Below are positions 13,844 to 36,764 of a stretch of 64,000 nt of DNA, one piece after another. How positions within the stretch are numbered: position 1 is the first letter of the stretch; every line of letters begins with the position of its first letter. Location: the NCBI RefSeq assembly GCF_036960985.1, contig NZ_JBALWD010000016.1:3998-67997 (forward strand), written 5' to 3'. Source of the stretch: Sneathiella sp. GTDB taxonomy: Bacteria; Pseudomonadota; Alphaproteobacteria; Sneathiellales; Sneathiellaceae. The position numbers and the translations under genes are program-made. The notes under the pieces are model-generated. The model did no database searches. It saw only the letters and a list, made by a program, of their open reading frames with translations, and was not told the origin of the DNA.

Positions 13844-14794
13844 ATGTTTGAATTGATCTTCTTTTCCCTGTTAAATGGGATTGTCACGGGACTACTGCTG
13901 TTCATGCTCGCAAGTGGTCTAACCCTTATTTTCTCGATGATGGGCGTCTTGAATTTCGCGCATGCCAGCTTCTATATGCTTGGCGCGTATCTGGCGTATA
14001 CTATCAGTATATATTTGGGGTTCTGGGTGGGCCTCATTGTCGCTCCGATATTGGTCGGCCTTATTGGCGCCGTCGTTGAGCGATACGGCCTTCGCTATGT
14101 CCATCGGTGGGGGCATGTGGCGGAGCTTATTTTCACCTTTGGTCTTGCCTTCCTTATTGAAGAAGTGGTGCAATTCATTTGGGGTAAAGATACAAAAGCG
14201 TATCTCGAGCCAGAAGTCCTGCAATTTCCGCTCTTTACGTTCTTCGGGCAAAACTTTCCGGCGTACAAAGCATTTATGCTGCTAATTTCCATCTCTATCT
14301 TTATCATGCTGTTGTTGATCCTGACTAAGTCACGTGTCGGTTTGATCATCCAGGCCGCAATTCATAAGCCGAATATGACGGCGATGCTCGGCCATAATGT
14401 GCCGCTGGTCTTCATGGGCGTGTTTGGAGTTGGCTGTGCGCTTGCAGGTGTTGCCGGCGTGATTGCCGGGCCAGCGCTGGGAACTTTCCCTGGTATGGCC
14501 GTTGTACTTGGCAGCATTGTTTTTGTGATCGTGGTAATTGGCGGTCTTGGGTCCCTGACCGGTGCTTTCGTTGCCTCCTTGATAATTGGCTTGTTGCAAA
14601 CATTTGCCATTGCCCTTGATTATTCAGTGAATGACCTTTTGACCGCCTTGAACATATCGTTTGATGCAGACAGTGCATTGCGCGATTTATGGTCACTCTC
14701 ATTGCCGCAGATTGCACCAATCCTGCCGTATCTCCTTCTGGTTCTGGTCCTGATATTCCGACCGACCGGCTTGTTTGGGAACCGTGAGACATGA
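13844..14794 (+). CDS. LIV-type ABC permease (LivH-like)
   Basis: GLTLIFSMMGVLNFAH, VVIGGLGS. Confidence 0.92.
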   Translation: MFELIFFSLLNGIVTGLLLFMLASGLTLIFSMMGVLNFAHASFYMLGAYLAYTISIYLGFWVGLIVAPILVGLIGAVVERYGLRYVHRWGHVAELIFTFGLAFLIEEVVQFIWGKDTKAYLEPEVLQFPLFTFFGQNFPAYKAFMLLISISIFIMLLLILTKSRVGLIIQAAIHKPNMTAMLGHNVPLVFMGVFGVGCALAGVAGVIAGPALGTFPGMAVVLGSIVFVIVVIGGLGSLTGAFVASLIIGLLQTFAIALDYSVNDLLTALNISFDADSALRDLWSLSLPQIAPILPYLLLVLVLIFRPTGLFGNRET

Positions 14795-16089
14795 GTGAAA
14801 TAGCAAAAACAGCGACTGCTGAAAAATCAGTGCCGTTCGTAAAACGTTACGCTGTCTGGATCGGGTTTTTCGTCATGCTTATGGTGATGCCGTATGTTTT
14901 CTCTTCAAACATCGGCTTATACACCATGAATTTGATGGGTATTTTTATCATTTTTGCCTTGTCCTATAATATGTTGCTTGGGCAAGGTGGTATGCTCTCT
15001 TTTGGTCATGCAGTGTATTTTGGACTAGGTGGTTTTATGTCCGTGCATTTCATGAACTACATAGAAGATGGTACTTTCTTCTTTCCCATGTGGTTGCTCC
15101 CAATATTTGGTGGTCTGATCGGATTGGTTTTTGCCATCATCATCGGCAGCTTCTCGACCCGGAAAGCCGGAACCGTTTTCGCCATGATATCTCTAGGAGT
15201 TGGTGAGCTAATGGCAGCCAGTTCGCTCATCTTCGTTGCCTTCTTTGGTGGCGAGGAGGGCGTAAGCGGCGACCGGACAATGGGCCCGCCGCTGTTTGGC
15301 TTTGATTTCGCCCAGGATGTTCAAGTATATTACCTGATAGCCGCCTGGGTCTTCGTCTCGGTTTTCCTGATGTATCTGTTTTCGCGAACACCGGCCGGAC
15401 GCATGGCCAATGCCGTCCGTGACAATGCGGAGCGGGCCGAGTTTGTCGGTTATAGCCAACGAAAAGTCAGATTTGTCTCCTTCTGCATTTCCGGGTTCTT
15501 CGCGGGTATCGCGGGTGGGTTATTTGCTATTAACTTTGAAATCGTCACAGAAGAAAACTTGAACGCCTTGACATCCGGCGTTGTTCTGTTGATGGCTTTC
15601 ATCGGCGGTGTTGGCTTCTTTATCGGACCGATTATCGGGGCCGTGGTTTTCACCTTGCTGCAAAGTATCTTGAGCAACTATACGGATATCTGGCAGCTCT
15701 ATGTGGGCGTCTTGTTCCTGCTGACGGTGATGTACGCGCCGCATGGACTAACCGGTATCATGATGATGCATACGCCGGCGTTCAAGATGAACCGCTTGGG
15801 AACTTTGTTAGTGCCATATCTTCGCATTGGTATTCCGACAATTTCCTTTATGGCCGGGGTCGCCGGTTTCCTGGAGATGATCCATCACGTACGAAGTGCA
15901 CCTGTGGATGAGACCATGATGAGCCTGATGGGCATTGAGTTTGATACCCATTCGATCATGCCGTGGGTGGTTATTTTCCTGTTGGCAGTAGTTGGCGGAT
16001 ATCTGGTGAAAACACAAGTGAGTCAGTTTAGAGATGCCTGGGATACGGCAAACGATCCAAATGCTGATACGGGAGGAGCCTCGTCATGA
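14791..16089 (+). CDS. LIV-type ABC permease (LivM-like)
   Basis: LSYNMLLGQGGMLSFGHA, AVRDNAERA. Confidence 0.92.
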   Translation: MSEIAKTATAEKSVPFVKRYAVWIGFFVMLMVMPYVFSSNIGLYTMNLMGIFIIFALSYNMLLGQGGMLSFGHAVYFGLGGFMSVHFMNYIEDGTFFFPMWLLPIFGGLIGLVFAIIIGSFSTRKAGTVFAMISLGVGELMAASSLIFVAFFGGEEGVSGDRTMGPPLFGFDFAQDVQVYYLIAAWVFVSVFLMYLFSRTPAGRMANAVRDNAERAEFVGYSQRKVRFVSFCISGFFAGIAGGLFAINFEIVTEENLNALTSGVVLLMAFIGGVGFFIGPIIGAVVFTLLQSILSNYTDIWQLYVGVLFLLTVMYAPHGLTGIMMMHTPAFKMNRLGTLLVPYLRIGIPTISFMAGVAGFLEMIHHVRSAPVDETMMSLMGIEFDTHSIMPWVVIFLLAVVGGYLVKTQVSQFRDAWDTANDPNADTGGASS

Positions 16090-28132: not shown

Positions 28133-28567
28133 ATGGCGCGTAGTGATTTTTCGTTTTTTTTCGATTTTCGAGTGCGGTATTCAGAGATTGATGGGCAGGG
28201 CGTTGTCTTTAATGCGCATTATCTCACCTATTTCGATACAGCCATCACCGAGTATTTTCGTCATCTAGGCTTTGACTACCGGGACTATGTGGCCCAGACC
28301 GGGCAGGATTTTCATTTGGTCAAGTCGCTGGTGAATTATGAAAAACCGATCCTGTTTGATGCAGATATCGAGGTTGGCTGTCGTGTGTCAAATGTTGGCC
28401 GCACCTCCATCACCTTCCTGCTCGAGATATTTGGCAAAGGAAATGACACCCGATATAGCAACGGTGAAATTATCTGGGTGAACACAGATCAAGCAACCCA
28501 TAAAACGGCGCCGGTTAATGATGAAATTCGGGCGCTATTTGGCCATACTGCGCTTGCCGCTACCTGA
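28133..28567 (+). CDS. Acyl-CoA thioesterase (4HBT/hotdog fold)
   Basis: RVRYSEIDGQGVVFNAHYLTYFD. Confidence 0.9.
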   Translation: MARSDFSFFFDFRVRYSEIDGQGVVFNAHYLTYFDTAITEYFRHLGFDYRDYVAQTGQDFHLVKSLVNYEKPILFDADIEVGCRVSNVGRTSITFLLEIFGKGNDTRYSNGEIIWVNTDQATHKTAPVNDEIRALFGHTALAAT

Positions 28568-28590: not shown

Positions 28591-30135
28591 ATGACGTTCG
28601 CCGGACCAGTTTTATCAACCCCCATTCATATCTCAACGCTGCTGCAAACCGGCATGACAGCGACACCTGATGAGACCGCCATCGTCTCCGCAGAAATGAG
28701 CTGGACCTGGCGTGAATTGCAGTCTGTAGTGGATAACGTGGCGGCAAATTTAATGCTGAAAGGGCTTAAAACTGGCGATCGACTGGCCTGCCTGATGCCA
28801 AATCGGACCCATTTGCTGATCCTGTATCTTGCAAGTTTCAAGGCTGGGTTTGTATTGGTTCCGCTCAATTACCGTTATACACCGAGAGAGATTGATTACG
28901 CGCTGGACGTCAGCGGGGCTTCTTTACTGGTTTATCATTCGGAACGTGCGGATGATATTGCCGCGTCGACGTCGACCCAGAACCTTTCGCTGGGCATGAT
29001 CCCTTACCGCCCTGCCGATGCAAGCGAAGCCGGTTTTGAAGATTTATATTCCGAGCCCGCAAGAGCGGTTGAATTCGGCTCGCTTGACGTAACTGGCCCC
29101 GCCGCCATCTTTTTTACATCCGGCAGTACAGGTAAACCAAAGGGCGTTACCCATAGCCATGAAAGCCTGGGCTGGATGTTTGCCGCCATTGTGGGCGCCT
29201 GCGGGCTGACCGCAAAGGATGTCATGCTTCCGGGCTCGTCCATGTCGCATCTGGGCGGCTTTATGTTTTCTTTTGCGGCCTTGTCTGTGGGCGGACGGGT
29301 GGTTATCGCTCGGGTTTATGACGCCACTGAAATACTGCCCCTCATGCGTCAGGAAAGGCCGACCGTGCTGTGTATGCTCCCGGCGACCTTAATGGGATTG
29401 GTTCGGGATCAAAGTGCAAAAGAAGATGATTTCAAATCTATCCGTCTTTGCCGATGTGGCAGTGACAAGGTACCGGCCGAGCTGGAAGTCGAGTTCGAAG
29501 CCCTGACAGGCTATAAAATTGATGAAGGTTACGGCATGTCCGAAGTCGGTCTGGCGGCCCTTAACCCGCCTGAAGGACTGATTAAAATGGGCTCCATTGG
29601 CACCGCCACTCCCGGTTTCGAAATGTCGATCCGTGATGATCAAGGCGTTGAGGTCATGAACGGGACCATCGGCAATCTCTGGATGAAAACACCGAGCCTG
29701 ATGACCGGGTATTGGAATAACCCCGAAGAAACGGAAAAAACCGTCCATGAAGGATGGATTGACAGCGGCGATATCATGCGGGCAGATGAGCAGAATTATT
29801 TGTGGTTTTGCGGCCGTAAAAAGCAGATTATCGTCCATGACGGATCGAATATCTTTCCGCAAGAAGTGGAAGAAGCCCTGATGGAACATGAGGCTGTCTC
29901 CAGTGTTGGCGTGGTTGGGCTACATGATCTGGTGCATGGTGAAAATGTCCGGGCCTATGTGGTTCTGCGCCCGGATCATGAGTTTCCAAGCGCGCTGGAG
30001 CTGATCGAGTTTACCCGCGGGCGTATCGGATATAAAGCACCGGAAGAGATCATCTTTTTACAGGAAATGCCGTTCAATCCCACCGGGAAAATTGACCGCG
30101 TCCGGTTGAAAAACATGGCGGCGGCCAATCACTAA
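28591..30135 (+). CDS. Class I adenylate-forming enzyme (acyl-CoA synthetase-like)
   Basis: FTSGSTGKPKG, YGMSE, SGD, GRKKQII, TGKIDR. Confidence 0.92.
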   Translation: MTFAGPVLSTPIHISTLLQTGMTATPDETAIVSAEMSWTWRELQSVVDNVAANLMLKGLKTGDRLACLMPNRTHLLILYLASFKAGFVLVPLNYRYTPREIDYALDVSGASLLVYHSERADDIAASTSTQNLSLGMIPYRPADASEAGFEDLYSEPARAVEFGSLDVTGPAAIFFTSGSTGKPKGVTHSHESLGWMFAAIVGACGLTAKDVMLPGSSMSHLGGFMFSFAALSVGGRVVIARVYDATEILPLMRQERPTVLCMLPATLMGLVRDQSAKEDDFKSIRLCRCGSDKVPAELEVEFEALTGYKIDEGYGMSEVGLAALNPPEGLIKMGSIGTATPGFEMSIRDDQGVEVMNGTIGNLWMKTPSLMTGYWNNPEETEKTVHEGWIDSGDIMRADEQNYLWFCGRKKQIIVHDGSNIFPQEVEEALMEHEAVSSVGVVGLHDLVHGENVRAYVVLRPDHEFPSALELIEFTRGRIGYKAPEEIIFLQEMPFNPTGKIDRVRLKNMAAANH

Positions 30136-30162: not shown

Positions 30163-31017
30163 TTAATTTTGTTTGTTCATGACAACGTCTATCACGCCAA
30201 TACAACTGGATGAGTGGGGGCCGGATGTGGAGCCGGATGAGGCGCTGGATTTAGGTTCAGCTGTTAGCCTGACTTGCGGACTATTCAGCTTCAGAGTTTG
30301 GATCAAATACCAGTTGTTGCCACCGTCGGGAACCGAGAAAGCCAGTTCCGAAGTCTCCTCAGAGTGCTTCCCGGTGACAATCAGCTGAACGCCATCGCTC
30401 CAGTAAGTTTCCGATATGCCGCCGCGCTTTCGGTAATCCAGCTGGAAATCCCAGTTGCGCTGCTTCGGGCAAACGGAATTGTTCATGGCCGTCGGGCTAT
30501 AGGTTGCCTGGACATTCCAGTAACCGGCTGGATCGAAAATTTCTGTTACAGTCGGAGCTGGTACCGCGGATTCCAACGACGAGTTAACTGGTGCGTTGCG
30601 GGCAACCTGCTGCTGAGACGACAGGTAACTCAGGTTAGAGCTGATACTGATTTCTAGCTGCCGCACCCAGGTATTGTAGCTGCGATGGATGCGGGCACCC
30701 TGGCTTAACAAATTGCGGCTCGATATGTAATCAATGTCAAAGGATTGATTGGTATAAACCACGTCAACCACAGCCTGATGTTTATTCTGGACATCCAGAG
30801 TGCCGCGGATCACGCCGGGCTCCAATTCTTTCATTACCCAGTTCCGTTCCACACCGGCAGCGAGAATTCCATCCCGGATAACCGAAAGCGGCGCCGTCTC
30901 CAATCCCGGTGACACGGCGACCGAAGAGGGGACATAAATAGGTTGAATGCGCGGCTGGCAGGCGCCGACGAAGATGACAAATAATACAAGTGCTGAAAAA
31001 CGGAAAAGAGAATTCAC
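30163..31017 (-). CDS. Lipoprotein of unknown function, short paralog
   Basis: Lipobox FVGAC; GTG 31017 with AGGA upstream; highly similar to the N-terminal half of 31095..32870. Confidence 0.75.
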   Translation of the reverse strand: MNSLFRFSALVLFVIFVGACQPRIQPIYVPSSVAVSPGLETAPLSVIRDGILAAGVERNWVMKELEPGVIRGTLDVQNKHQAVVDVVYTNQSFDIDYISSRNLLSQGARIHRSYNTWVRQLEISISSNLSYLSSQQQVARNAPVNSSLESAVPAPTVTEIFDPAGYWNVQATYSPTAMNNSVCPKQRNWDFQLDYRKRGGISETYWSDGVQLIVTGKHSEETSELAFSVPDGGNNWYLIQTLKLNSPQVRLTAEPKSSASSGSTSGPHSSSCIGVIDVVMNKQN

Positions 31018-31094
31018 AAGACAGTTCCTACTATACAAAAATGTTGATTTCTAACTACTACGGAAATATTGAAAGCCACTTGTTGCGTTATCAA

Positions 31095-32870
31095 TTATCC
31101 TGTTTTGCTAATCTTTGTCATGCTGAAGACAATTTTCCCGGTACACCCAGCATGACCACCACTAGTTTCCTGCGCTTCAGAATGAAAGGTTTTCTGGTCC
31201 TGATCCAGCCTAAATCTTTCGCTCCATTGCCAGTTACTGCCGCCACCCGGGTAGTTGACTGCGAGCACGATTTTACCGTTTATGGTTTCGCTATTGACAT
31301 ACAAGCCCTCGCGTCCGGCCCAGAAAGTAAAAGACTGCTGCGGTGCGGTGAAGCTTAAATCAAAATTCCACAAATGAGATCGGGAGCAATAAGCTGAATT
31401 ACCGACCGAGGCTTCATATTTAGCCGTAACGCGCCACGTTCCCCTCGTTTTATAGCCCGCCGGATTTTGCGCCGTTGCCGTAACTTCTGACGAACGGGCC
31501 AGGGCTTCATTGAGGTTTAGAATGGCGACAGAAGCGTATTTGCTATCCAGATGCTCCTTTAAAAACTGGCCGAGTGCGGTTGGATCCTGCTTGTCTTCAA
31601 GGTTGCGCCAGGCAATATCCGCGCTAGAGATCGATGCGCTGCTTTGCTTTTTCATGGTGAAGACAATTTTCCCGATGCATCCAGCATGACCGCCACCAGC
31701 TTCACGAGCTTCAGAGAAGAAGTTTTTTTGATCCTGATCCAGCCTAAATCTTTCGCTCCATTGCCAGTTACTACCGCCTTTTGGATAGTTCAATGCGAGA
31801 ACGAGCCGGCCGTTCTCTATAGTACTATTGACATACAGGCCTTCTGATCCGGTCCAGAACGTATAGGATTGCGGTGTGTTGGATAGGGTGAGATCGAAAT
31901 CCCAAACATGTGGTTTGGCACAGTAGGCCGATTTCCCCGAAACCGCTTCATATTGTGCAGCTACGCGCCATCTTCCTGTCGTATCATAGTCATTACCCGT
32001 GGAATTTCTTGCGGCAGCGCTAGACGAAAACGCCAACCCAGGCCTGTCCTGTTTCGTCATGAGAATATCTACCACACCGACACAATTTGACGCCGACATG
32101 GATCCCGAGCTGAATTTAGGTTCAGACGTTAACCTGACTTGCGGTTTGTCCAGTTTTAGTCGTTGGGTCAGTTGCCAGTCGCCGCCAGCATCGGGAACCG
32201 AGAAAACCAGTTCCGAGTAATCCGCGGAATGTTCCCCAGTGACATTTAATTGAACGCTATTACTCCAGTAAGTTTCCGATATGCGGCCGCGCCTACTGTA
32301 GTCGAGCTGGAAATTCCAGCTGCGTTGTTTCGGGCAAATGGAGGCGTTCGTGGCTGTGGCCGAATACGTCGCGGAGACATTCCAGATGCCGGCCGGATCA
32401 AAGGCTGCGGCTTCGGCTTTGGGAACAGCTGCAAGTGGCACCGCCGCTGTTGGATTTGCTTTTTGTTCCGCGGCGACATAACCCAGGTTATTCCCGATGC
32501 TGATTTCCAATTCGCGGACCCAGGTATTGTAGCCGCGGTGAATTCGAGCACCCTGGCTCGCCAAATTGCGGCTCGACACGTAATTTATGTCAAAGGATTG
32601 GTTGGTATAAACCACGTCAACCACCGCCTCATGCTTACCTCTAACACCGAGTGTAGCGCGGATTACACCCGGGCTCCGTTTTTCCATTACCCAGCCTTTC
32701 TCAGCACCCGCGGCGAGAATTCCGTCGCCGATCGCCGACAATGGTGCCGTCTCTAATCCCGGCGGTACCGCGACCGAAGAGGGGATATAGATAGGTTGGA
32801 TGCGCGGCTGACAGGCGCCGATGAAGATGACAAATGTAATCAAGGAGATAAGACGGAACGGGATTTTCAC
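31095..32870 (-). CDS. Lipoprotein of unknown function with three copies of a ~115-aa Cys/Trp domain
   Basis: Lipobox FIGAC; repeats at aa ~157-274, ~295-409 and ~473-586. Confidence 0.8.
   Translation of the reverse strand: MKIPFRLISLITFVIFIGACQPRIQPIYIPSSVAVPPGLETAPLSAIGDGILAAGAEKGWVMEKRSPGVIRATLGVRGKHEAVVDVVYTNQSFDINYVSSRNLASQGARIHRGYNTWVRELEISIGNNLGYVAAEQKANPTAAVPLAAVPKAEAAAFDPAGIWNVSATYSATATNASICPKQRSWNFQLDYSRRGRISETYWSNSVQLNVTGEHSADYSELVFSVPDAGGDWQLTQRLKLDKPQVRLTSEPKFSSGSMSASNCVGVVDILMTKQDRPGLAFSSSAAARNSTGNDYDTTGRWRVAAQYEAVSGKSAYCAKPHVWDFDLTLSNTPQSYTFWTGSEGLYVNSTIENGRLVLALNYPKGGSNWQWSERFRLDQDQKNFFSEAREAGGGHAGCIGKIVFTMKKQSSASISSADIAWRNLEDKQDPTALGQFLKEHLDSKYASVAILNLNEALARSSEVTATAQNPAGYKTRGTWRVTAKYEASVGNSAYCSRSHLWNFDLSFTAPQQSFTFWAGREGLYVNSETINGKIVLAVNYPGGGSNWQWSERFRLDQDQKTFHSEAQETSGGHAGCTGKIVFSMTKISKTG
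31113..31988. repeat. Intragenic direct repeat, period 534 bp, including a 41-bp perfect match
   Basis: TCCTGATCCAGCCTAAATCTTTCGCTCCATTGCCAGTTACT at 31198-31238 and 31732-31772, within longer degenerate similarity. Confidence 0.9.
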
Positions 32871-34837: not shown

Positions 34838-35065
34838 TTATTGATCCTTGGTATCTCGTTTGAACAAGGCCCATTCTTCCATGACAGTGCCATCGGGTAA
34901 GTGGCAATAGCCAACCTGGCCCGCAGCCTCTGACACGATTTTCACAGTGCCGCCTTTTTCAGCACAATGCACCGATGCGGGGTTGGCTAAGGTAGATTTC
35001 GGTTTCTGTTCCTCTGAGAGGCAGGCCATCAGGGGCAACACTAAAATTAGGGATAGATATCTCAT
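34838..35065 (-). CDS. DUF333 small lipoprotein
   Basis: LMAC lipobox, ANPASVHC...GG...GYCHLPDG...EEWALF. Confidence 0.88.
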   Translation of the reverse strand: MRYLSLILVLPLMACLSEEQKPKSTLANPASVHCAEKGGTVKIVSEAAGQVGYCHLPDGTVMEEWALFKRDTKDQ

Positions 35066-35195
35066 AATCTTGACCTCAATACACGCATGTTTAGAAATAA
35101 ATTATTTACCACAACCTATGGAGTGTCTATATAGTTTGTTTGCACTTCTACGGTTATTGTTTTTGACAGACACGTCAATAGGGGAAAAAAGTAGC

Positions 35196-36764
35196 ATGCC
35201 GATTACCGGATCCAAACTGGAAAAACCTTCAAATCTCCTGAACATTTTTAAGACTAGCCTGGAAACCAAACCCGATGAGATCGCGTTGGTGTCCCGGCGG
35301 GTTCGCCTGACCTGGCGCGAATTGGAAACCATGAGCAGTACTTTGGCGAGCAGTTTGCTCGCTTTTGGTTTGGTGCCGGGTGATCGCGTAGCTTCCTTGA
35401 TGCCCAATCGATGGGAACTGTTAATCCTTTATCTCGCTTGCCTTAAAGCCGGGCTGGTCGCCACGCCGCTTAACTATCGATATATGGCGCCGGAGATTGA
35501 TCATGCGCTGGGCGTAAGTGACGCGAAAGTTTTAATTGCCCATGCGGAACGAGATGCAGACCTGGCCGAGACCAGCCTTGTGAAATCACTTCCATTTGGT
35601 GTCATCGGCTATGCCGCCGATGACAAGCGGGAGTCAAACCTGGAACAGATGATTGAAAGCTGTCCCGATAATATTGAAATTCCGGAAAACGATTTTTCCG
35701 CGCCGATGGCGATCTTTTTTACGTCCGGCAGTACGGGTAAGCCGAAGGGAGTGACCCATACGGTGGAAACTTTCAGCTGGATGTGTTCGGCAATTATGCA
35801 AGCCCTGGAAATTCGCGGCGATGATGTACTGCTACCGGGCTCCTCTATTTCGCATGTGGGAGGTTTTCTCTGGACATTTGCCTGTTTGTCCTCCGGTACG
35901 CAGGTTATTATTGCTCGGTCCTTTGACGGCGATGAAATGTTGCCAATCCTGCGTGATTTCAAGCCAACAGTTTTGAGCATGATTCCTGCGGCATTGTTCG
36001 AGCTGGTCCGCGACCGCCATGGTACCCATGATGATTTTGCGTCTCTGCGCCTTTGTGTTTCCGGTGGCGACAAGATCTCCAGTGTGCTCGAGCATGAATT
36101 TATGGAAAAAGCAGGTATCGTCGCCTCGGAAATATACGGCATGACCGAAATCGGTTGCTCGCATTTCAATCACGATAAGTCGCAGCATCATTTGGGATCC
36201 GTTGGGACAGTTGCCGACGGGTTTGAGGCAGTCCTGCGGGATGATAATGGTGGAGAAGTTGCGCTGGAGGAGCCGGGACGGTTATGGGTGCGATCAAAAA
36301 GCACAACAATCGGTTACTGGAATAATGAAGACGCCACGAGCGAAGCCTATGATGAGGGTTGGTTTGATACAGGTGACATCATGAAGCTTGATAAGGACGG
36401 GTTTTATTGGTTTTGTGGTCGCAAGAAACAGATCATTATACATAACGGATCAAATATTTGCCCGCAGGAAGTCGAGGAGGCATTGCAGGGCCATGCTGCC
36501 GTTGAACATGCCGGCGTTGTCGGCGTGCATGATCTGGTTCATGGTGAGAATGTTATTGCCTATATAACCTTGCAGGCTGATGCCGTTTTGCCGTCTTTGG
36601 GTGAAATTATTGCGTTTAGTAAAAAACTGGTGGGATACAAGGCGCCGGAAGAAATTGTCATCCTCGATGAAATGCCGTTTAACGCGACGGGAAAAGTTGA
36701 CCGTGTCACCCTGAAGAAGCTCGCTGAAGAGGCTCACCGCATTGACGCCGTAGTAACCGCGTGA
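35196..36764 (+). CDS. Class I adenylate-forming enzyme, paralog of 28591..30135
   Basis: FTSGSTGKPKG, YGMTE, TGD, GRKKQII, TGKVDR; ATG 35196 follows GGGG, avoiding overlap with DUF333. Confidence 0.92.
   Translation: MPITGSKLEKPSNLLNIFKTSLETKPDEIALVSRRVRLTWRELETMSSTLASSLLAFGLVPGDRVASLMPNRWELLILYLACLKAGLVATPLNYRYMAPEIDHALGVSDAKVLIAHAERDADLAETSLVKSLPFGVIGYAADDKRESNLEQMIESCPDNIEIPENDFSAPMAIFFTSGSTGKPKGVTHTVETFSWMCSAIMQALEIRGDDVLLPGSSISHVGGFLWTFACLSSGTQVIIARSFDGDEMLPILRDFKPTVLSMIPAALFELVRDRHGTHDDFASLRLCVSGGDKISSVLEHEFMEKAGIVASEIYGMTEIGCSHFNHDKSQHHLGSVGTVADGFEAVLRDDNGGEVALEEPGRLWVRSKSTTIGYWNNEDATSEAYDEGWFDTGDIMKLDKDGFYWFCGRKKQIIIHNGSNICPQEVEEALQGHAAVEHAGVVGVHDLVHGENVIAYITLQADAVLPSLGEIIAFSKKLVGYKAPEEIVILDEMPFNATGKVDRVTLKKLAEEAHRIDAVVTA

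Follow-up and report, generated by a model that had tools for sequence, protein, structure and literature searches.

Tandem Sneathiella lipoproteins join an ApeA-family domain to copies of an orphan, predicted all-beta module

The 64,000-nucleotide stretch of DNA from a marine Sneathiella sp. analyzed here (the window) carries, as neighbors on its minus strand, genes for two paralogous lipoproteins, which we call L (long) and S (short). On sequence comparison, both are paralogs of ApeA, a lipoprotein encoded in aryl-polyene (APE) gene clusters, and both carry in addition an orphan beta module restricted to the genus; L has a three-helix spacer as well. A preliminary description of this DNA had reported the two adjacent open reading frames (ORFs) with their lipoboxes, and both are indeed present. 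L consists of a signal peptide, an ApeA-like N-domain, repeats A′ and B, a helical module and repeat B′, while S has a signal peptide, an ApeA-like N-domain and a single repeat, A. Their features are as follows.

31095..32870, minus strand: gene for the long lipoprotein L (591 residues), GTG start with AGGA 5′ of the start
32811..32870, minus strand: L signal peptide and lipobox (residues 1-20, FIGAC), from the sequence; helix 2-19 in the AlphaFold2 (AF2) model
32451..32810, minus strand: L N-domain (residues 21-140), ApeA family by homology; predicted alpha-beta4-alpha, with an AF2 predicted local distance difference test (pLDDT) of 84-96
32043..32408, minus strand: L repeat A′ (residues 155-276, Cys179/Cys263)
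31638..31994, minus strand: L repeat B (residues 293-411, Cys317/Cys398)
31473..31628, minus strand: L predicted three-helix spacer module (residues ~415-466, ADIAWRNLEDKQDP..FLKEH.DSKYA..A...LN)
31104..31460, minus strand: L repeat B′ (residues 471-589, Cys495/Cys576)
30163..31038, minus strand: gene for the short lipoprotein S, 291 residues from TTG 31038 or 284 residues from GTG 31017
30598..30957, minus strand: S N-domain, ApeA family by homology (residues 28-147, TTG numbering)
30166..30543, minus strand: S repeat A (residues 166-291, TTG numbering, Cys190/Cys279)

The mechanically called ORF for S begins at TTG 31038. GTG 31017 is more probably the start, since it has an AGGAA Shine-Dalgarno sequence 7 nt upstream and agrees with the start of the database call P0008 and of the homolog P0003. 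In both proteins a hydrophobic signal peptide leads into the lipobox (FIGAC in L, FVGAC in S), and residue +2 after the lipidated Cys is Gln, not Asp. In E. coli, a residue other than Asp at +2 sends a lipoprotein to the outer membrane; this rule, applied to an alphaproteobacterium, suggests that L and S may be sorted there. Ala/Pro/Ser-rich linkers separate the N-domain and the modules. Scans for promoters and terminators gave nothing better than shuffled sequence.

The N-domains of L and S are 71% identical (E 8e-78, BLASTP), in keeping with the shared N-terminal domain described earlier. The identity of that domain had been missed: by homology, it is a member of the ApeA lipoprotein family. 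E. coli ApeA aligns with residues 11-129 of L at 37% identity over 120 residues (E 7e-20, BLASTP), and hhalign matches it to an alignment of Sneathiella N-domains with a probability of 99% (E 2.9e-18). The E. coli O145:H28 APE cluster encodes a hypothetical 125-residue protein, a methyltransferase, a chain-length factor, a lysophospholipid acyltransferase and two acyl carrier proteins, followed by a hypothetical protein, an AMP-binding protein, a FabZ-like protein and a family 2 glycosyltransferase. The 125-residue protein, in the apeA position immediately upstream of the methyltransferase gene, is a lipoprotein (..LAGC followed by ART..); RefSeq labels E. coli ApeA a "hypothetical protein." In strain CFT073, apeA (c1204, "lipoprotein") is the first gene of the APE cluster (Johnston et al. 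2021, PMC8253772). Its deletion left pigmentation intact, with only immature APE carboxylic acids being made, and the authors suggested that ApeA has a role in the outer-membrane localization of the APE-lipid or, alternatively, that APE itself is the lipid anchor of ApeA (PMC8253772).

The family reaches far beyond Sneathiella. An N-domain profile finds standalone lipoproteins of about 128-140 residues in Kangiella and others. A scan of a collection holding one genome per bacterial or archaeal species, made with a diverse N-domain alignment, yielded 425 confirmed loci (a narrow alignment confirmed none), including Vibrionaceae, Shewanella, Aeromonas, Xenorhabdus, Buttiauxella, Belnapia, and Campylobacteraceae and Desulfovibrio metagenome-assembled genomes (MAGs). 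The solo members mostly span ~128-160 residues as stop-to-stop frames, which overstate gene length. Loci of the family (L016-L092) are exemplified by L073:4941-5327 and L093:2537-2914. When the neighboring ORFs of 80 fetched loci with an N-domain were clustered, the N-domain gene adjoined an ApeC-like ketosynthase chain-length-factor gene at 59. Genes for two acyl carrier proteins lay beside it at 55 and 51 of the 80, and those for a lysophospholipid acyltransferase and a small membrane protein (ApeG) at 50 each; AMP-ligase, methyltransferase and flavoprotein genes were present at many. Such a set of genes is that of APE clusters. The family has no Pfam-A or NCBIfam model, and sequence searches found no PDB match.

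Sneathiella itself has the canonical arrangement. Three genomes (L016, L035, L036) carry a colinear apeA-C-D-E-F-G-H-I cluster, and in S. sedimenti and S. litorea one contig holds both this cluster and the fused genes, ~50 kb apart. In a rough tree, the fused N-domains branch among ApeA sequences from alphaproteobacteria, close to canonical ApeA of Sneathiella, a placement compatible with an origin by duplication within the lineage. The ApeA-like gene of Buttiauxella sp. B2 (L070, 4914-5330) lies outside an APE cluster, with homologs of lysC, rluF and yjbD as neighbors. Stray genes of the family thus occur outside Sneathiella too.

Most of the remainder of each protein is made up of copies of a ~118-residue repeat. 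In pairwise BLASTP of the excised segments, A and A′ are 63-65% identical (E about 1e-58) and B and B′ 67% (E 1e-60). Between the A and B classes, identity is 26-31% across the full ~118 residues (E 1e-11 to 3e-19), a similarity far beyond chance as judged by alignment. The two classes drawn in the preliminary description are thus borne out, as is its four-repeat consensus: among 33 copies drawn from 16 proteins, seven residues never vary (G, W, Y, C, W, F and C), and conservation reaches at least 80% for V, L, S, T, P, GG, W, LD, G, M and K. Every copy has one invariant Cys pair, and a recount placed the Cys residues of L at 20, 179, 263, 317, 398, 495 and 576, exactly where the three pairs had been given. 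A hidden Markov model built from the four window copies detected one to three copies in every homolog. Pfam, NCBIfam and PDB sequence searches gave no match for L, S, single repeats or the repeat profile, and the same held for the N-domain profile, the helical module and E. coli ApeA; weak matches to DUF6174 (E 0.1), PNGase_A_C and DUF4177 among all these searches were rejected as chance. As had been surmised, the repeat matches none of the named families, and by these searches it is a previously undescribed sequence family lacking a Pfam or NCBIfam model.

The repeat was expected to form beta strands, and structure prediction agrees. AF2, given a 19-row alignment, modeled repeat B alone with a pLDDT of 89.3 and a predicted template modeling score (pTM) of 0.81, as eight consecutive beta strands with no long helix. 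In the model of full-length L (21-row alignment, pLDDT 81.3), the eight-strand pattern recurs in the same order three times, at residues 162-273, 299-408 and 477-586, so that the three copies share a predicted fold. The N-domain is modeled as alpha-beta4-alpha (helix 44-57, four strands within 61-101, helix 112-138), and residues 416-466 form three helices. Confidence falls below 50 solely in the linkers 143-154, 277-292 and 464-471. With a pTM as low as 0.34, this model does not fix how the domains are arranged, which is what one would expect of beads joined by flexible Ala/Pro/Ser linkers. The models support a predicted all-beta module, an eight-stranded up-and-down antiparallel meander, and by DSSP neither has a helix after strand 8. 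One Cys of the invariant pair lies a few residues past strand 1 and the other is the first residue of strand 8. In such a meander, the two sites come to lie on one side and next to each other only where strand 1 pairs with strand 8, and we infer that the Cys pair is a disulfide that staples these strands together in a closed barrel, a shape that is plausible for the modeled meander. The G and W at the start of strand 1 are invariant in 33/33 repeats, as G-x-W. This is the motif of the first strand of lipocalins (structurally conserved region 1).

The preliminary description had gone further and, reasonably enough, likened the repeat to lipocalins or avidin. In Foldseek searches of the PDB, lipocalins were indeed the top matches of the single repeat (L-PGDS 4os3 and others, E 0.014), and TbpB was that of full-length L (4qq1_C, E 4.6e-4; matches spanning E 4.6e-4 to 1.6e-3). 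However, template modeling (TM) scores were 0.22-0.35, with a root-mean-square deviation (rmsd) of 12-16 Å, for the lipocalins and 0.10-0.27 for TbpB, the latter at probabilities of 0.69-0.96. The repeat matched no Pfam lipocalin family even at E values up to 10, and a Foldseek search of viral structures turned up nothing meaningful. We would describe the module as a predicted beta meander with local geometry like that of calycin or TbpB barrels, a likeness that does not place it in either family.

The TbpB matches raise the possibility that L and S are surface lipoproteins of the TbpB/fHbp kind, capturing a macromolecule or nutrient carrier of host, algal or environmental origin, with the ApeA-like domain as a mere membrane-proximal anchor. 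The probability of the match to the C-lobe of 5kkx was 0.92-0.96; the modular, linker-rich build and rapidly varying repeat number are typical of surface proteins, and the only public sequencing run with the sequence is an algae metagenome. Against this stand the TM scores, as well as the absence of a Slam/DUF560 or TonB-dependent receptor gene within about 8 kb in the Pfam tables for the window and six syntenic loci. We consider a role of this kind unlikely, although it is the strongest of the alternatives.

The preliminary description counted the four repeats correctly but overlooked the three-helix module between B and B′ (residues ~415-466). This module of ~45 residues (A-W-x5-6-D-x3-L-x2-F-[LM]-x4-[DG]-S-x-Y-A-x2-A-x3-L-N) has no Pfam match, is conserved in relatives, and is predicted to form three helices. 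Its location varies: it follows the N-domain or lies between repeats (as an example, it is at residues ~145-190 of P0025), and one 215-residue paralog (L004:8954-9601) has the N-domain and helical module without any beta repeat. The number and order of modules differ among genomes, as listed here, where N denotes the N-domain, H the helical module and R the repeat.

Window: N-R-R-H-R and N-R
S. marina: N-R-R-H-R and N-R-R
Two metagenome contigs: N-R-H-R and N-R-R-H-R
Sneathiella SAT66: N-H-R-R-R, a single gene
L004/L013: N-H-R and N-H
L014: N-R and N-R
S. litorea and S. sedimenti: N-R-R
L025: N-R-R and N-R

In a neighbor-joining tree of the repeats, all first-position copies form one class (A). 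Repeat B of the window clusters with the last repeat of P0004, a paralog of 477 residues, and B′ with those that end P0002 and P0003, paralogs of 618-649 residues. Since B and B′ thus group with the last repeats of different paralogs, the tree implies exchange of modules between tandem genes, beyond serial duplication. The successive duplications proposed earlier would be too simple a history. Such rearrangements would not be recent, because the paralogous parts of the window share just 75-82% DNA identity; for the same reason, recent gene conversion between the paralogs was ruled out.

One can envision from this beadlike build that the proteins bind nothing at all and serve as structural or regulatory envelope spacers, rigid beads on Pro/Ala linkers spanning the periplasm in the manner of LpoA/LpoB. 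The variable number of beads, the long Ala/Pro-rich linkers of P0002 and similar relatives, and the low interdomain confidence of the AF2 model would all fit. The invariant aromatics and G-x-W of each bead point to a conserved fold core; this is compatible with a spacer too. We regard such a ligand-free role as improbable.

The beta repeat is rare. Word-indexed searches of 5.8 billion proteins returned only 7 and 6 relatives, the named ones all from Sneathiella and the S. marina tandem pair NBZ79_06710/06705, which comprises proteins of 584 and 409 residues, among them. When 1.84 billion cluster representatives were searched with a HMMER profile, 22 matched, about ten of them true relatives; P0033-P0044, long proteins matched in many stretches, were treated as spurious, and P0036, which was read, is a low-complexity tandem repeat. 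The repeat occurs in 14/92 fetched loci, all from Sneathiella or close alphaproteobacterial MAGs, and by these counts is essentially confined to Sneathiella-like genomes. The closest relatives, P0001 (92% identity) and P0009 (89%), come from a Sneathiella MAG and place the window in Sneathiella (Alphaproteobacteria, Sneathiellales). P0001, the L ortholog, breaks off within its third repeat, where an unrelated 28-residue tail follows (..GRGALRLNMKPRSVIQLIAPDLICGILI), the product of a frameshift or assembly error in that MAG.

All loci that could be placed occupy one syntenic slot of Sneathiella-like genomes. At every locus examined, an AstE/AspA-like gene is followed by a CadD-like transporter gene and the lipoprotein gene or genes, and beyond these lie a convergent acyl-CoA synthetase gene, a 4HBT thioesterase gene and rmlD/B/C. 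The CadD-like gene (PF03596, E 1.5e-9) is directly upstream of the lipoprotein genes on the same strand. This constant gene order, and the two invariant Cys residues per module, might suggest that the two thiols of a module bind metal instead of forming a disulfide and that the proteins buffer or hand over soft metals (Cd, Cu, Hg, Zn) together with the CadD-like transporter. However, the repeat alignment shows no conserved His, Met, Asp or Glu beside the cysteines, and the periplasm is oxidizing. Functionally, synteny confined to one narrow clade counts for little; the spacing of the CadD-like and lipoprotein genes is anywhere from 78 to about 980 bp, and some loci have opposite-strand ORFs. 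A metal-handling role thus seems to us very unlikely, the least probable of the roles weighed here.

Several other features of the neighborhood deserve mention. Two paralogous AMP-binding acyl-CoA/ACP synthetase genes, 28591-30135 (plus strand) and 34947-36764 (plus strand), lie on either side of the block formed by the lipoprotein, CadD-like and AstE-like genes, and a 4HBT thioesterase gene (28133-28567) adjoins the first of them. The bracketed arrangement is kept in most Sneathiella loci examined; SAT66 (L005/L006) is without the first synthetase. The 605-residue synthetase ORF probably has a true length of about 522 residues, as in relatives. A small gene for a putative DUF333 (PF03891) lipoprotein, conserved in most syntenic loci, lies between the AstE-like and second synthetase genes (34838-35065, minus strand). 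Elsewhere in the window, an AT skew of -0.27 at 13844-16089, over two branched-chain amino acid ABC permease genes (PF02653), looks like the ordinary composition of genes for membrane proteins.

How might L and S work? We imagine them as cell-envelope lipoproteins built as beads on a string. The ApeA-like head would engage the same partner as canonical ApeA, and so target the protein to the APE-lipid or to the machinery for APE assembly or export at the outer membrane. The beta modules would be small calycin-like cups for hydrophobic envelope molecules, each stapled between strands 1 and 8 by its disulfide in the oxidizing periplasm, and APE-type polyene lipids would be the most economical candidate for the ligand. 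Lipocalins commonly bind polyenes and lipids, and it is this habit, together with the homology to ApeA, the G-x-W motif and the weak resemblance to lipocalins and TbpB, that leads us to propose that L and S act by binding in the cell envelope, with APE-type lipids as a possible ligand. We give the combination of an ApeA-type head with calycin-like binding units a probability of roughly one-half. A more specific version, in which the ApeA domain docks APE lipids and the fused arrays of stapled cups act as a multivalent periplasmic or surface carrier of pigment-lipid, is doubtful, and we would rank it below the TbpB-like role and only slightly above that of a spacer.

Several observations weigh against the proposed binding of hydrophobic envelope molecules. 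Foldseek gave weak matches (single-repeat E 0.014, TM scores of at most 0.35, rmsd above 12 Å), and a lipocalin-type closed barrel is not established by them. The two genes lie outside any APE cluster, and the 64-kb window contains no homologs of APE genes except the two N-domains. The conserved neighbors (the CadD-like and AstE/AspA-like proteins, the acyl-CoA synthetases and the thioesterase) are not known to have an APE role. Finally, the one public run with the locus, the algae metagenome, is of DNA; there is none of RNA.

The locus is a genus-specific elaboration of a widespread, functionally obscure lipoprotein family. It brings to light two sequence families without a Pfam or NCBIfam model, the widespread ApeA (at least 425 loci) and the genus-restricted beta repeat, and it shows that the ApeA domain can serve as an N-terminal building block, here fused in one genus to arrays of a previously undescribed beta module. 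If the modules bind hydrophobic ligands, they offer a clue to the part played by ApeA in outer-membrane lipid handling; were they to prove lipid-carrying cups, the fusion would be a "Rosetta stone" revealing the function of ApeA in the family of biosynthetic gene clusters most widely distributed among bacteria. If none of these functional ideas holds, L and S would still be a clean case of lineage-specific domain invention and shuffling, of limited general importance.

It is useful to set L and S beside the systems that they most resemble. Like TbpB-type surface lipoproteins, they are lipoproteins of tandem beta modules. TbpB has tandem lobes with eight-stranded barrels; its organization of each lobe into handle domain and barrel is not evident in L, it has no sequence similarity to the window proteins and reaches TM scores of at most 0.27, and the window locus differs in having no Slam or TonB-dependent receptor gene nearby. 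With lipocalins and other calycins, such as lipocalin-type prostaglandin D synthase (4os3), the ~118-residue repeat has in common the predicted eight-strand antiparallel module and the G-x-W of the first strand, whereas it differs in lacking a C-terminal helix and a Pfam lipocalin match and in the position of its putative disulfide. Canonical ApeA, as found in the APE clusters of E. coli, Vibrio and Xenorhabdus, is a single domain of ~125-140 residues that heads its cluster; the window proteins, of 284/291 and 591 residues, are encoded at a different locus and carry one to three extra beta modules, L with its helical spacer as well. What they have in common with ApeA is the lipoprotein signal peptide and lipobox and, in the N-domain, the motifs H-x-A-V-V-D, Y-V-S-S-x-N-L and I-H-R-x-Y-N-x-W-V.

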